Notes: generated by a model not told the origin, from the letters alone. Positions 3,088 through 40,470 are shown, counted from the stretch's first letter. The stretch is 64,000 nt of DNA from an uncultured Gammaproteobacteria bacterium (GCA_965231095.1 OZ246416.1:436380-500379), one strand, 5' to 3'. Made by a program: numbers and translations.

Positions 3088-4629
3088 TTATTTCCTCGCC
3101 TTCTCCGTCACCCAAAACCCTAAATATTTTCCAAGCATCAGTCTTGTTTGCGCTTCCACGGCTGGGATTGAACCAAATAAAATCAAAGAAATCGGAAGCA
3201 ACGCCCATTGGGCAAGCATGATAATAAATTTAAACGGACTCTGATTTTTTGGCCGCGGAGGAAGTAAAAATAAAAATAAAATCGCGGAAACAACCATCCC
3301 AAGCATGGCGGCGGTCAGGAGCCACTGCAGGACAAGCGGCGCGGTCTGAAAAAACGCCGTTGTTCCAATCTTATCTTTTCCAACCCAAAGCGGCAATTTG
3401 CTCAAAACAAACATCAGGATCGGCGCGGTTGCCCAAGAATACATCCCCTCTCCCAGATTCCAAAGATATTTAATTTTTTTCCAAAAAGGAATTTTTGGCA
3501 CGGCGATTTCTCCGCTATCAGTCTTCAATGTCCCGCGAGAAAAATGCCAAACCATATATGGAAAATGCTCCACTCCCCAAGCCCAACGCCGCTGTTGTTT
3601 ATAAAGATTAACCAAGCTTTTCCAGGGGGTCTCGGCCATTACCGTATCCATGGAAACCGGAACATACATTGGCACAACTTCAAACTCCCCGCCATAACGG
3701 ATAAAACATTGTAAAAAAATTCTTGAATCATCAGTGACAATATCTTTCTGCCAAAAATCAACATCAACTAACGCCTTGAAAGCGATGCTGTGCGAAGAAA
3801 AAGTAAAAAGCCGATCGGGTTTTGCAAGTTCTGTTAGCAACCAAAAAGTTGTGCCAAAGGCCGCGACGCGCATCAGGGACATTGAATCCCAGATATTATT
3901 ATTGTAGAGCGCCACCGGCTGAAAGGCCGCCCGCTCCCGCCCGGGATGCGTGATATATTTATATGCCAGGCACGAAAAATATTCCGGATGCACGCAAGTA
4001 TCGCTATCGAAATAAGAAACAATAATTTTTTCATAAGAAATTTTAAGTTCGTCAATCAATTCTTTGGCGCGAAAACCGGCCCAGTGCGCGTTTGCCCCCT
4101 TGCCCTTAATTTCTCCAACCAAATTATCCGGATGCACAGTAGTAAGCAACCGAAAAAAATTATTACCGAATTCCTTTTTAATTTCCTCCACATTTTTTAA
4201 AAAATTTTCTTTATTTCTTTCTTCGCCGGACAAAACCACTATCATCTTATCTTTTGAATAATTTGAAGCTATCAAACTTTTAAACGTGCAACGCAAAACT
4301 TCAAGTGGTTCTTTGGAGGTCGGCAAAATTATCAAATGATAATAATTCTGCCAATCCGGCAATTCTTGAACTTTTTTCCACCAATCTGTCTTTACATCTT
4401 TTTTAAAACGCCGCCAAGAAATTGCCATGTAAAAAACGAAATACAGCACGCGGAAAAGCCAATAAATACAAAAAATTATCACGAAATAAATTACCCAAAG
4501 CGGTTTCCAAAAAGAAAGCAAAATAGCCAAAATAAAAGTAACCCAGACGAGCGCGCCTGGAATAATTTCTAACATTCTATATTTTGTCCTGTCGGTAATC
4601 TTCATAAGGTTGATTACGGCAAAATTCAA
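3088..4629 (-). CDS. Integral-membrane processive GT2 (cellulose-synthase-like, QxxRW motif)
   Basis: 513 aa with multiple N- and C-terminal TM helices. Central GT2 domain with D,D,D residues and a QQRRWAWG motif (QxxRW of processive beta-glycosyltransferases). Confidence 0.6.
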   Translation of the reverse strand: MNFAVINLMKITDRTKYRMLEIIPGALVWVTFILAILLSFWKPLWVIYFVIIFCIYWLFRVLYFVFYMAISWRRFKKDVKTDWWKKVQELPDWQNYYHLIILPTSKEPLEVLRCTFKSLIASNYSKDKMIVVLSGEERNKENFLKNVEEIKKEFGNNFFRLLTTVHPDNLVGEIKGKGANAHWAGFRAKELIDELKISYEKIIVSYFDSDTCVHPEYFSCLAYKYITHPGRERAAFQPVALYNNNIWDSMSLMRVAAFGTTFWLLTELAKPDRLFTFSSHSIAFKALVDVDFWQKDIVTDDSRIFLQCFIRYGGEFEVVPMYVPVSMDTVMAETPWKSLVNLYKQQRRWAWGVEHFPYMVWHFSRGTLKTDSGEIAVPKIPFWKKIKYLWNLGEGMYSWATAPILMFVLSKLPLWVGKDKIGTTAFFQTAPLVLQWLLTAAMLGMVVSAILFLFLLPPRPKNQSPFKFIIMLAQWALLPISLILFGSIPAVEAQTRLMLGKYLGFWVTEKARK

Positions 4630-4750
4630 AATAAAGCTCTCTTTTTAGCTCTAATTTCTGTTTAAATCATAATTCATTTAAGCGATTTTGTCAACCCTCA
4701 CCAAAGTCAAGGGGTATTATTTTATCCGAAATAAACCTCTAAATTTAAAT

Positions 4751-4782
4751 AAAAAAACCGGCCAGTATTTAAAACCAGCCGG
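4751..4782 (-). terminator. Rho-independent terminator downstream of the GC-rich ORF 4796-5377
   Basis: Minus strand reads CCGGCUGG-uuuuaaaua-CUGGCCGG (8-bp stem with 2 G-U pairs) followed by UUUUUUU. Confidence 0.45.
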
Positions 4783-4795
4783 GACGGGACCTTCC

Positions 4796-5377
4796 TCACT
4801 TACTGCCACCGTTCTTACGCTCTTCTCCGCGAAGCCTCCGCAAAAGCCGCCAGGCGATCCAGTGGTAGGTTTTAATAAGGGCAAGACGTGTCTTGCCGAT
4901 TGTGTCAACGCCCTCGCTTGTTACGGGGCGAAGCGGCTTATCCTTACTACAAGATACCTTGAAGGAAATCTGGACATGATGGCTCCGGTCGAACTCTGAC
5001 TCGAAGGCGCAGTAACCGACTACGCGTACCTCTTCAAGATATTGCTCGATCTCTGGCCAGCGCCGCCGAACCGCCTCGTGCAGAGCGCATCTGACAACGT
5101 CGACAGAACCAAGCTCGCCATCGTAGGCATGCCCATTCTTCTCTCGATCCTTAATTACCCTCTCGTCGACGATTTCGACAAGTTGATCGTCAAGAGACAA
5201 AACGAGATGGACCTTCACCCAGCTACTACACTCATCTATCCAGTGGTTATCTACCTTGAACGTGACCACATGAAACTGCGGCGCCCTACCCGCGGCGATT
5301 GCCCCCGCCAACTCCTTCTCAATCGTGTTGTTTGTCTCGGACTCCTCCCCCTCGGGCCCTTCCTCGCACTCTGTCAC
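4796..5377 (-). CDS. Hypothetical protein, GC-rich islet 1 (193 aa, GTG start, acidic N-terminus)
   Basis: A ~53% GC block in a ~40% GC background, with no A/T homopolymer runs, unlike its flanks. GTG start is preceded by GAAAGAAGG about 6 nt upstream, and the ORF has its own terminator. No family recognised by eye. Confidence 0.4.
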   Translation of the reverse strand: MTECEEGPEGEESETNNTIEKELAGAIAAGRAPQFHVVTFKVDNHWIDECSSWVKVHLVLSLDDQLVEIVDERVIKDREKNGHAYDGELGSVDVVRCALHEAVRRRWPEIEQYLEEVRVVGYCAFESEFDRSHHVQISFKVSCSKDKPLRPVTSEGVDTIGKTRLALIKTYHWIAWRLLRRLRGEERKNGGSK

Positions 5378-5499
5378 GCCCGACCTTCTTTCTACCCCTC
5401 CCCATTTAGAAAAACGGATCCGTCAATCCGCTCAAAAACAAATTTATCACAAATAAAAAAACAAGTCCAGTTTTTGCCCGGACTTATTTTTTCTAAAAA

Positions 5500-5811
5500 T
5501 TATTTTATGTGTTTTTTGACATCACTCCATTTTGTTTTCAAATCTTCCACAACCGCCTCAACCTGCGTTTTGGCCATATTTTTTCTTTTACCATACTCCT
5601 TCACCACTTTTTCCACGACCTCATCGTATTTTTCTTTGCTTATCACTTTCATCTTCCCAACCGCTTCCAAAATTTTGGCAGTGAGCTCCGGATACTTCAT
5701 TTTAAATTCTTCTTGCCGCGTCTTGCCGGTCTTTTTTGTGGTGAAAAGCGCGACGGCCGTACCAATCAAGGCTCCAAGAAGAGCGCCCTTCATAAATGTG
5801 TTTTTACCCAT
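5500..5811 (-). CDS. YtxH-like (DUF948) small membrane protein
   Basis: 103 aa. N-terminal glycine-zipper TM helix KGALLGALIGTAVALFTTKKTGK followed by a charged coiled-coil tail. A terminator hairpin AAGTCC...GGACTT plus T-run lies downstream at ~5447-5480. Confidence 0.45.
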   Translation of the reverse strand: MGKNTFMKGALLGALIGTAVALFTTKKTGKTRQEEFKMKYPELTAKILEAVGKMKVISKEKYDEVVEKVVKEYGKRKNMAKTQVEAVVEDLKTKWSDVKKHIK

Positions 5812-5821
5812 AAATTTTAAA

Positions 5822-6292
5822 TTATTTATAAATTACTATTATGCGCCTAACAATTAAATCCTTTTTTCTTCTTAAGTATCCTCCTCGAAAATCAAACCAA
5901 ACTCTTTTAAACATTTTCTTTTCCATTTTTTTAATTTTTCCAAACTCGGGATCGGCTAAATAAATATTTTTTTGAGCCAGGCCAACCGCGACCGAATAAT
6001 GGCCGCCATCCACCGAAAACCAATCTATAATAACCGGTATGTTTTTTTTCAAATAAAAATTTATATCGGAAAAATCGGAAAAATCTTTTACTAAAATTTT
6101 AAAACCAAAATATTTCGCGGCTCGCTTAAATCCTTCCAGGCCCGTCCCCTTGCTTTTTGTGGTCCGGCAAATTTTTACCAATTTTTTTTCACTCTCTTTT
6201 ACGCCATAAAGATCTAAAATCATTTTTAGGGAAGCTGGCCCGCAGGAACTCCACCCCGCTGTTTGTTCATAAGGTTTTACTTTAAGCATCAT
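5822..6292 (-). CDS. Papain-like cysteine peptidase, C39-like (Peptidase_C39_2/BtrH-like) domain protein
   Basis: 156 aa. Q...GWSSCGPASLKMIL active-site Cys context and downstream GGHYSVAVG His, typical of the C39-like family. No adjacent ABC transporter. Confidence 0.5.
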   Translation of the reverse strand: MMLKVKPYEQTAGWSSCGPASLKMILDLYGVKESEKKLVKICRTTKSKGTGLEGFKRAAKYFGFKILVKDFSDFSDINFYLKKNIPVIIDWFSVDGGHYSVAVGLAQKNIYLADPEFGKIKKMEKKMFKRVWFDFRGGYLRRKKDLIVRRIIVIYK

Positions 6293-21866: not shown

Positions 21867-21995
21867 ATCACAACCACAAAAGTAATAAAAAAACTAAAGG
21901 CCTTGTCAAACTTAAATAACCTTGTTATCATTATATCAAAATCAGGCATATATAGCTATAATTTTACATTTTGCATTTTTAATTTCTAATTTTTT

Positions 21996-22068
21996 GACCC
22001 GGTAGCTCAGCTGGTAGAGCATCTGCCTTTTAAGCAGAGGGTCCTGGGTTCGAGCCCCAGCCGGGTCA
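21996..22068 (+). tRNA. tRNA-Lys (TTT)
   Basis: GACCCGG/CCGGGTC acceptor, D-arm GCTCAGCTGGTAGAGC, anticodon stem TCTGC/GCAGA with loop CTTTTAA, T-arm CTGGG-TTCGAGC-CCCAG. Confidence 0.85.
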
Positions 22069-22334
22069 TTTTTTATTTTTCTATAGTTTTATTAAAACCT
22101 TCAAACGGAGGTTTTTTTGTTTGTCTTGCCCCGTAGTAGAATTTTGGAATTTAAATACTCTTTCGCCGGTAATCGATTGCATTTATCTTTATCGCAAAAT
22201 ATTAAAACCAAGTTCTTTGTCCGCCCCTGGCGGATATCCAAAATTTCACTACGGGGTTGACAAAATCGGCGTATTATTCTAAAATCCAAGGTCGCGATAG
22301 ACAACAACTCTCCGAATCGGAGAAGGAGGCACCC

Positions 22335-22988
22335 ATGGTGGAGGAACGTGATTTCGAGAGACTGCGGGAGCTTACCCCACGGCAATTGTGGATGGAGCTC
22401 GCGGCGGCCTACGAGGCGCTCGCGGCGCAAGAAGTGGAGATCAGGGGTCTCCGCAGCTCGCTGGCGGAACTTTGGAACGAGGGGGAACAATACATGGCCG
22501 AGGGGCGGATCGATCACCTGACGGGCGCGCTGAACCGCAGGGGCGTCGAGATCGCTCTTACTGACGAAATGTCCTTCGCCCGACGCTTCGAGTCCCCTCT
22601 CAGCGTGATCGCGATCGACGTCGACCACTTCAAGGAAACGAACGACACGTACGGACACCCTGCCGGGGACACCGTCCTGCAGGAAATCGTCAGGCGTGCT
22701 CGCAAGGTTCTCCGCCCCTATGACTCAATCGGACGAATAGGAGGAGACGAACTCACCATCATTCTCCGAGGGGCAACTTTGAAAAACGCAACTTTGGTCG
22801 CCGAACGTATCTGCGCGGCCATAGCGCTAAATGTCTTTTCCTACGGCGAAGCAACCTTCCGTGTAACAATCAGCGTCGGTGTGGCCGTGGCCGAGAGAGA
22901 GGCAAAACAAACCCTCGAAGCGGCAGACGAGGCTCTCTATGAGGCCAAACGTAGCGGTCGCAACCGCGTAGTTGCGATCAATCGATAG
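22335..22988 (+). CDS. GGDEF-domain diguanylate-cyclase-like protein (GGDEL variant) with short N-terminal coiled coil; GC-rich islet 2
   Basis: ~60% GC. AAGGAGG lies 7 nt upstream of ATG MVEERDF (this ATG was chosen over the longer track ORF starting at 22257). GGDEF-domain hallmarks: LTGALNRRG, IDVDHFKETNDTYGHPAGD, RIGGDELTIIL. No sensor or TM domain. Confidence 0.75.
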   Translation: MVEERDFERLRELTPRQLWMELAAAYEALAAQEVEIRGLRSSLAELWNEGEQYMAEGRIDHLTGALNRRGVEIALTDEMSFARRFESPLSVIAIDVDHFKETNDTYGHPAGDTVLQEIVRRARKVLRPYDSIGRIGGDELTIILRGATLKNATLVAERICAAIALNVFSYGEATFRVTISVGVAVAEREAKQTLEAADEALYEAKRSGRNRVVAINR

Positions 22989-39763: not shown

Positions 39764-40345
39764 TTACCACCACAAAACCTTGGCCAGGGCGGCAAGCGAC
39801 CGACCGTCGGTGGACTGCTTCCGGAACTCGGCCGGGGTCATGAGCTCGGCTTCCGGGATGGCGTTGACCTCCACGGAATAGACCGCGATCATGCCCACGA
39901 TGCGCTGGGGATTGGATTCGATGTAGCCCACAGGCTCGAGTCCCTTCTCGGCCAGTTCGCCTTTGGAGATGCTCGAGGGTTTCAGCTCCAGCATCTCGCC
40001 GTTCAGGCCCTTGGCCTTGCGGACGCGCACCTTGATCTGCCCGTGCTGGTGGTTCCACTCCACGATGACGTGACCCACGACGCGCGAGCTGCCGTCCTCG
40101 GGCTGCGAGAGGTTGGGCTCTTCGTAGAGCACGAGCTGGCCCCAGCCGCCGCGATCCACGTAGCGCCCGTCGAAGAACTTGCCATCGCCCCGACCACTCC
40201 GACCCGTCGCCGGATCGAAGCACCAGAGCTCGGCCTCCTTGCCATCCTCAACCTTCTTCGTGAGGATCGGATCGAGCTCGAGGCAAACGACGACATCTTC
40301 GCCCAAACGCCTTCGCGCCTCTTCCAAAACGATGATCTGTACCAT
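39764..40345 (-). CDS. Hypothetical protein, GC-rich islet 3 (194 aa)
   Basis: ~60% GC. Start trimmed to ATG (MVQIIVLEEARRRLGEDVVV) preceded by AAGGAAGGAAAG. Strong terminator downstream. Sits inside the rml cluster. No family recognised. Confidence 0.45.
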   Translation of the reverse strand: MVQIIVLEEARRRLGEDVVVCLELDPILTKKVEDGKEAELWCFDPATGRSGRGDGKFFDGRYVDRGGWGQLVLYEEPNLSQPEDGSSRVVGHVIVEWNHQHGQIKVRVRKAKGLNGEMLELKPSSISKGELAEKGLEPVGYIESNPQRIVGMIAVYSVEVNAIPEAELMTPAEFRKQSTDGRSLAALAKVLWW

Positions 40346-40470
40346 CTCTTTCTTTCCTTCCTTGAAGCCCCCTTGGCTTCTTGTTGATATTGATAACTTA
40401 AAACAAAAAACGAATAATGTCAAGAACAGCAAAGCGGCCTTTCGGCCGCTTAATTTTTATTTAATAACCC

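Follow-up and report, generated by a model that had tools for sequence, protein, structure and literature searches.

Constant ends and an exchangeable core in a GC-rich gene of a probable Falkowbacteria-like Patescibacteria sequence: a candidate specificity locus

A stretch of 64,000 nt deposited as part of an uncultured Gammaproteobacteria bacterium (GCA_965231095.1 OZ246416.1:436380-500379), referred to here as the window, carries at positions 4751-5445 a GC-rich block with a single ORF on its minus strand (4796..5377, 193 aa). Comparison with related strains revealed that the ends of this gene are constant, and that an internal segment of 426 nt is exchanged. The window has a GC content of ~43% and the gene content of a genome of the Patescibacteria (Candidate Phyla Radiation, CPR). 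Coordinates are positions within the window, and the locus is read on the minus strand. The gene and its homologues are designated the family, and homologous loci and proteins are given by L and P numbers, respectively. The features of the locus, from upstream to downstream, are as follows.

5455-5493, minus strand: intrinsic terminator of the upstream gene ytxH (terminator scan; conserved in orthologous loci)
5441-5449, minus strand: putative extended -10 element, TGaTAAATT (read from the sequence; block conserved in 13 orthologous loci)
5410-5433, minus strand: leader hairpin with core CGGAU-loop-AUCCG, then U5 (RNAalifold on 12 loci; minimum-free-energy fold)
5384-5403, minus strand: Shine-Dalgarno region (read from the sequence; conserved purine tracts)
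4796-5377, minus strand: coding sequence, 193 aa, GTG start (homologues, dN/dS, AlphaFold2, Foldseek)
5279-5377, minus strand: 5' constant arm, codons 1-33, encoding a disordered acidic tail, helix α0 and GKAP (L028/L010 and L029/L022)
5353-5367, no strand assigned: 15-nt repeat, 5' copy, within codons 4-9 (disordered N-terminal tail); regarded as a chance match (repeat statistics, alignments)
4853-5278, minus strand: variable cassette, codons 34-175, comprising the whole βββα×2 core; class A in the window (strain comparisons)
4796-4852, minus strand: 3' constant arm, codons 176-193 (starting with WRLLRRLRGEERKNG) and TGA (L028/L010 identity; motif near-invariant in the family)
4785-4799, no strand assigned: 15-nt repeat, 3' copy, overlapping the stop codon; judged a chance match (repeat statistics, alignments)
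4758-4782, minus strand: intrinsic terminator of the family gene, 9-bp stem and T7 (terminator scan; 13 loci)
4666-4694, minus strand: promoter of the downstream glycosyltransferase gene, TTGACA-17-TATGAT, the downstream limit of the unit (promoter scan, 11/12)

The coding sequence runs from a GTG start codon (5377-5375) to a TGA stop codon (4798-4796), as proposed in an earlier note made from the sequence alone. The start codon is GTG in 12 of 13 aligned orthologous leaders and ATG in the remaining one. Two purine-rich Shine-Dalgarno tracts precede it (GAAGG at 5388-5384 and GGGGAGGGG at 5403-5395), and the orthologous leaders retain such tracts 8-20 nt before the start codon. The upstream gene (5500-5811), described earlier as ytxH-like, indeed encodes YtxH (Pfam E 5e-9). 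It has a separate terminator, as that note had stated, though at 5493-5455 rather than ~5447-5480, and the hairpin and T-run of this terminator are kept in orthologous loci. The terminator expected for the family gene itself was found 3' of the stop codon as a G+C-rich hairpin followed by T7. In the 3' alignment, this terminator is retained by the 13 ytxH-side loci and missing from L006 and L026. The next gene downstream, encoding a family 2 (GT2) glycosyltransferase (3088-4629), has a near-consensus promoter of its own, of which the GGTTGAC block was found in most relatives. Bracketed by two terminators and followed by a gene with its own promoter, the family gene looks like an independent transcription unit, in agreement with the earlier proposal. 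An ORF of 271 aa on the plus strand (5042-5857) overlaps the family gene and ytxH in antisense orientation; most likely it results from the GC-rich third codon positions of the opposite strand and is not a gene.

The leader of this unit is conserved across lineages. Its first part, TGaTAAATT, is a putative extended -10 promoter element on which the two-hexamer promoter scan made no call. The hairpin that follows sits just 3' of the putative transcription start and recurs in the minimum-free-energy fold; all eight of its predicted pairs are kept among the 12 loci compared, with one-sided changes only and zero compensatory double changes. In the window and 12 orthologous loci, the region 5410-5449 thus consists of the putative -10 element, a near-palindrome (CGGATTGACGGATCCG) and U5, and is better conserved than the adjoining ytxH coding DNA. 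Possible roles of the hairpin are those of an attenuator, of a 5' element stabilising the mRNA or of an operator.

The ORF was shown to be a genuine protein gene. A search of 5.8 billion proteins returned homologues in 19 clusters (179-205 aa, 37-100% identity). Differences between the window gene and that of its closest relative, L027, are distributed over codon positions 1, 2 and 3 as 21, 19 and 64, corresponding to a ratio of non-synonymous to synonymous substitution rates (dN/dS) of 0.11; between relatives this ratio ranges from 0.11 to 0.19, with third positions changing approximately three times as often as the others. AlphaFold2 models were obtained with a predicted local distance difference test (pLDDT) score of 83.9 and a predicted template modelling (pTM) score of 0.80 for the window protein, and of 89.9 and 0.84, respectively, for a diverged allele (classes A and D below). 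The earlier note had left room for a structured RNA, in which case the ORF would be spurious, and a high GC content within an AT-rich genome is typical for RNA genes. However, Rfam at gathering score reported only four tRNAs in the whole window, and a permissive scan of 4500-5700 (E up to 10) produced terminator-driven noise and nothing meaningful. ARAGORN detected neither a tRNA nor a tmRNA at the locus, and folding was no better than that of shuffled controls on either strand (z=-0.88 and -0.54). Together with the codon-periodic substitutions, a dN/dS near 0.1 and the confident protein models, these tests refute the RNA explanation, to which we assign virtually no probability.

Exchange of the core was evident from pairs of closely related strains. 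L028 and L010 share 98.98% identity over 3545 nt from the upstream genes into the family gene; this is followed by 415 nt that blastn could not align, and then by a return to 96% identity. When the codons of this pair are aligned, the sequences agree completely (100%) as far as the second base of the Pro33 codon; identity then falls to ~55% until codon 175 and recovers to 98% beginning with the Trp176 codon. A similar pattern was seen in a second pair: the YtxH proteins of L029 and L022 are 100% identical and their flanks 91-94% identical, but the core has 43% protein identity, and blastn matches stop and resume at the same two codons as in the first pair. In a third mosaic, P0011, the arm resembles that of P0010 (88%) and the core that of P0009 (89%). 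Otherwise near-identical genomes therefore show a sharp drop in identity that is confined to the core (codons 34-175), which exhibits 41-43% protein identity between strains with 93-100% identical flanks, and the breakpoints lie inside the conserved GKAP and WRLLRR codons. The term cassette, used earlier for the whole islet, is thus apt in another sense: the exchanged unit is the internal segment 4853-5278, with boundaries within the coding sequence and not at its ends. Synonymous identity is mildly raised in the arms (0.54-0.66, versus 0.36-0.53 elsewhere in the gene), indicating that they are conserved mainly at the protein level rather than as special sites in the DNA; on this ground, a functional DNA or RNA element overlapping the arms was rejected.

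The cores were found to fall into discrete, deeply diverged classes (A, B and D and, in other lineages, C, E and F), distributed as follows.

Class A: the window, L027, L029, L028 and L002
Class B: L013 and, more distantly, L030
Class C: L001 and L016
Class D: L022 and L010
Class E: L025 and L004
Class F: L006 and L026

Within a class, the core diverges approximately in step with YtxH and is under purifying selection. Identities of YtxH versus core and of arm versus core showed the classes to be discordant with the flanking genes. Classes A and D are each present in two separate host lineages; the class D cores of the two lineages are 75% identical, versus 67% for YtxH, while the class A cores track the YtxH tree.

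As all mosaic contigs are metagenomic, and as 36 identical bases in the 3' arm could bridge a de Bruijn graph, the mosaics might be assembly artefacts in which contigs switch between co-occurring strains at conserved motifs. This is very improbable in view of three independent cases from different assemblers and sources, and of the class D version having been assembled four times independently. Moreover, the class A core of L028 is flanked on both sides by arms with lineage-specific codons (those of AIVAG and of the tail ending in GKR), and this core matches no other known sequence, so that any donor would itself have to be a strain of the same lineage with class A. Contigs with the gene are often very short (0.9-4 kb; e.g. 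L027, L028 and L025), and several end within 75-170 nt downstream of it, as would be expected if strain-level heterogeneity at the locus had impeded metagenome assembly.

Constant arms around a variable core also match the architecture of programmed antigenic or phase variation, in which silent cassettes elsewhere in the genome convert an expressed gene in the manner of pilE/pilS. Against this explanation, which we consider improbable, a six-frame profile search and blastn revealed a single copy in the 64-kb window, and the gene is single-copy in every locus that was fetched. A mechanism resembling that of diversity-generating retroelements (DGRs), or one using local donor copies, was likewise rejected, as no second copy was detected in the window at the protein or DNA level.

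The main alternative is sporadic and neutral: an ordinary lineage-specific gene, possibly regulatory, with a fast-evolving core that is occasionally overwritten by DNA of a diverged relative, since its conserved ends and flanks are good recombination substrates, and with neither balancing selection nor a specificity function. Homologous replacement accounts equally well for the sharp breakpoints, classes C and E fit plain vertical divergence, and no partner or defence context was found. On the other hand, two separate host lineages share the same pair of classes (A and D), P0011 provides a third mosaic among only ~19 known sequences, and neighbouring genes in the same contigs were not replaced (3.5 kb at 99% identity). 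We regard this alternative as possible but unlikely.

The earlier note had interpreted the block as an islet, with an imperfect 15-nt direct repeat as a possible insertion-site duplication or cassette boundary. The repeat exists (CGGGACCTTCCTCAC at 4785-4799 and CGGGCCCTTCCTCGC at 5353-5367, the second copy ending at 5367 and not at 5369), with 13 of 15 positions identical, or 19 of 25 when extended. However, an equally good pair occurs in the end zones of 7.7% of real 695-nt windows of this sequence, and anywhere within 30% of them, and the family gene ranks only fifth among 48 window genes in start-versus-end similarity. Alignments showed that the pair decays to ~15/25 in L027 and is absent from other relatives, e.g. 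L013 and L028. Both copies are GA-rich: the 5' copy encodes E-E-G-P in the disordered, indel-prone N-terminal tail, and the 3' copy is a purine run following the stop codon. The repeat was therefore judged to be a coincidence at chance level, and its role as a target-site duplication or attachment site was rejected.

Gene order also speaks against a recent insertion. In the loci of 14 distinct relatives, all retrieved via the family gene itself, ytxH lies directly upstream in 11; downstream, where the contig reaches, GT2 follows in seven of the ytxH-linked loci, with an acylphosphatase first in three. This synteny holds down to 40% protein identity, within a conserved cell-envelope cluster that includes CDP-alcohol phosphatidyltransferase, SH3, DUF4012 and MreB genes. 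Only the most distant branch is located elsewhere, between ndk and an ORF of 210 aa that reads like signal peptidase I. No family relatives were found in phage, plasmid and viral (IMG/VR) collections, and no integrase or transposase was present among the called neighbours (YtxH, GT2, peptidase C39 and similar). Because its neighbours are conserved across loci and it has no phage, plasmid or viral homologue, the family gene is judged to be a long-resident chromosomal gene and not a recent insertion. A horizontally acquired islet or gene cassette bounded by a duplicated 15-nt site, as suggested by the compositional anomaly and the repeat at both ends, is accordingly highly improbable.

Several observations relate to the surroundings of the gene. 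The acylphosphatase gene between the family gene and GT2 (L013 6719-7000, L029 1495-1773 and L030 1112-1390) indicates that, in some lineages, gene order is less constant on the downstream side than on the upstream side. In the same three loci, the C-terminal tail ends in NG(H/N)SC instead of NGG(S/Q)K and the GA-rich tract following it. Two loci of the distant branch, L006 and L026, have a G6...C6 hairpin after the stop codon, with AAGGAGGT and a TTG or ATG start in its loop, and in L009 a downstream ORF (804-1121) was called that overlaps the end of the family gene. A coupled downstream gene of this kind may have left, as a relic, the purine tract that follows the stop codon in the window. 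Finally, L017 (CAZQHU010000007.1), labelled 'uncultured Gammaproteobacteria', carries a family member that is 99-100% identical at the DNA level to that of L006; it has ~38% GC, with uvrD, ndk, and lepB-like and hisS-like ORFs arranged as in L006, and its bin label looks wrong.

The compositional distinctness of the block, remarked upon earlier, was confirmed: its GC content is 0.53-0.56, versus 0.41-0.42 in its flanks, and the GC content at third codon positions (GC3) of the gene is 0.629, versus 0.430 +/- 0.042 in 45 other window genes (z=4.8). The earlier note had set its islet against a conserved host protein family with host-like codon usage; a resident family was indeed found, but its codon usage is not host-like. 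In 13 loci of the ytxH-linked lineage, the gene has a GC content of 0.55-0.57, versus 0.39-0.52 (mostly 0.41-0.43) for the remainder of the locus, and the core has a GC3 of 0.55-0.74. As the proportion of synonymous differences among orthologues is 0.5-0.75 (near saturation), the GC excess has been kept without amelioration, which argues that this composition is being maintained.

Two other GC-rich blocks are present in the window. The first (22257-22988, plus strand; GC 0.57-0.62, GC3 0.66) is also a single-gene block, encoding a GGDEF diguanylate cyclase (Pfam E 5e-40) unrelated to the family, just downstream of tRNA-Lys (21995-22069). The other (39764-40432, minus strand; GC 0.60-0.65) contains an ORF of 222 aa without a Pfam match (GC3 0.785) and is the strongest compositional outlier of the window; an ORF of 192 aa overlapping it in another frame is probably spurious. 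Paralogy of the family gene with these two genes was rejected by a profile search of all six frames. With translational selection in mind as a possible cause of the high GC3, ten further window genes were screened, with no ribosomal or elongation-factor gene among them.

The family has very few members: an exhaustive profile search of 1.84 billion cluster representatives returned 26 hits, of which two were spurious repeat proteins; the long hits P0036 and P0040 of the representative search were rejected as repeat or PAS proteins. The 24 clusters yielded by a second profile search carry neither a functional name nor a precomputed Pfam domain. Family members (142-230 aa) contain no other domain, the window protein likewise standing alone, and their sources, where named, are Candidatus Falkowbacteria or Patescibacteria group bacterium. 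For the window protein, Pfam, PHROGs, NCBIfam and PADLOC returned nothing; a PDB sequence search with the family profile returned nothing even at E 10, and a BFVD fold search nothing convincing. As far as the literature was searched, the family is undescribed.

In the AlphaFold2 models of both class A and class D, the order of elements is α0, βββ, α, βββ and a long α, with two tandem βββα repeats in one compact domain. The constant N-terminal helix (ELAGAIAAGKAP) and the constant, Arg-rich end of the C-terminal helix (HWxAWRLLRRLRGE) frame the two repeats. Mapped onto the model, the constant arms thus correspond to the N-terminal tail, to helix α0 including GKAP and to the distal half of the final helix, while strands β1-β4 and the 143-149 loop are the least conserved parts of the variable core. 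The top Foldseek match for both models is Mycobacterium tuberculosis LeuA, and the class A model also retrieves the regulatory domain of Leptospira citramalate synthase (probability 1.0; 3f6g_A with a template modelling (TM) score of 0.77, target-normalised). Like the allosteric domain of LeuA and CimA (PF08502; PDB 1sr9, 3fig, 3hpz and 3f6g), the modelled family protein has two tandem βββα repeats of similar size, and glycine-rich helix caps at equivalent places, i.e. GxLGSxD where LeuA has GNGPVDA, and EGVDTI where LeuA has ATDIVE. In contrast, the LeuA domain lies C-terminal to an HMGL-like TIM barrel, whereas the family protein lacks a catalytic barrel and adds an N-terminal helix and a long basic C-terminal helix. 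PF08502 (LeuA_dimer) gave sub-threshold hits in 4 of 37 members (best E 6e-4; cut-off 24.9 bits), none for the window protein and none reaching the curated threshold. Profile comparison gave no significant support for homology to LeuA, as hhalign against Escherichia coli LeuA and a 15-sequence alignment of LeuA C-terminal domains gave a probability of <1%. The predicted fold is that of a stand-alone, LeuA-regulatory-domain-like βββα×2 protein, with homology unproven.

Tandem double-stranded RNA-binding domains (dsRBDs; MLE and DRB4) share an α-β-β-β-α topology occurring twice and appeared as secondary Foldseek hits (E 6e-4 to 3e-3). They differ from the family models in TM-scores of 0.2-0.26 and a root mean square deviation near 19-20 Å, and in the family having strands twice as long and two repeats packed into one domain. 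The window protein has no dsRBD match in Pfam.

The conserved C-terminal motif was also encountered in L019 (3743-4219), a Betaproteobacteria metagenome-assembled genome, in a hydrophobic protein of 158 aa that ends in AWRLLRRLRGEE; 12 residues are identical to the family motif and follow directly upon a hydrophobic stretch. From its sequence and its neighbours, i.e. genes for a likely periplasmic binding protein and a membrane protein of 426 aa, we take it to be a DctQ-like small permease of a tripartite ATP-independent periplasmic (TRAP) transporter. The match is probably convergence, and hints that the motif suits a membrane-interface position.

On the most likely reading of the sequence, the gene belongs to a Falkowbacteria-like Patescibacteria lineage and encodes a small cytoplasmic protein. 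We lean towards interpreting the locus as one for a specificity protein with constant ends and a variable core, kept polymorphic by homologous recombination. In this mechanism, recombination would exchange core alleles with the constant arms as anchors, and selection would keep several old alleles in circulation, the polymorphism being either balanced or frequently replaced. The constant helices may dock the protein to an invariant partner, for which the basic, amphipathic C-terminus suggests a nucleic acid or a membrane surface, and the variable β-core would form the specificity surface, meeting a partner or ligand that itself varies, for instance a factor from a phage, host or competitor. 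Another possibility is that the core tunes a small-molecule site at the GxLGSxD and EGVDT caps, placed like GPVDA and TDIVE of LeuA. CPR bacteria are not known for branched-chain amino acid synthesis, which makes feedback control by leucine or isoleucine an unlikely role. Frequent gene conversion at this locus may have produced the lasting GC3 excess as a by-product.

A more far-reaching version, which we hold to be conceivable yet doubtful, is that of an ancient multi-allelic recognition or incompatibility determinant, in which a constant helical handle carries the LeuA-regulatory-like β-core as an interchangeable module for specificity. The classes would be kept across species by balancing selection from phage, host or kin, and frequent recombination would render the gene GC-rich through biased gene conversion. 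No trans-specific balanced polymorphism in CPR bacteria is described in the literature, as far as it was searched.

Confidence is high for the anatomy of the locus and its evolutionary pattern, and low for its function. Several points weigh against a specificity protein. No partner gene, toxin, receptor or defence signature was detected nearby by PADLOC, PHROGs, NCBIfam or Pfam, and the context of a distant member, L032, is uninformative. The alleles in near-identical backgrounds come from different samples, and the mosaic contigs derive from metagenome assemblies. The between-class dN/dS of 0.3-0.4 is uninformative because dS is saturated, and the rise in synonymous conservation of the arms is only mild. 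The link to LeuA, as judged from predicted models, is at the fold level only, since profile-profile comparison with LeuA C-terminal domains was not significant.

Patescibacteria, which have tiny genomes, depend on other cells, and the genes that mediate their specific interactions are poorly known. The family would add a free-standing version of a fold hitherto encountered only in the feedback-sensing tail of LeuA-type enzymes, and a polymorphic locus with conserved ends and a variable core in a little-studied phylum. Swapping of the core in strains that are otherwise 93-100% identical is the population-genetic signal expected of a specificity function, making the locus a candidate for phage, host or kin recognition in Patescibacteria, as well as a test case for whether recombination-driven GC bias shapes CPR genomes. 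For annotation, it illustrates that a GC-rich 'islet' in an AT-rich genome may be neither an insertion nor an RNA gene.

DGRs are common in CPR bacteria, and their targets resemble the family protein in displaying localised hypervariability. Unlike DGR targets, the family gene has no template repeat within the 64-kb window by blastn (the window ORFs were not screened for reverse transcriptase), and its differences extend over all codon positions of 142 codons and form discrete classes, rather than being adenine-specific. A further parallel is provided by loci with conserved ends and a hypervariable, recombining centre, i.e. flagellin fliC, the type I restriction gene hsdS (HsdS, the specificity subunit) and pherotype or specificity loci such as agr and comQXP. 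The family protein is unlike these in having no sequence or fold relationship to them, and no signal peptide, export context or visible cognate partner gene. It is like them in that constant helical terminal segments flank a variable globular core, in the existence of discrete, old allele classes, presumably exchanged by homologous recombination in the conserved ends, and in the discordance between the phylogenies of the core and the flanking genes.

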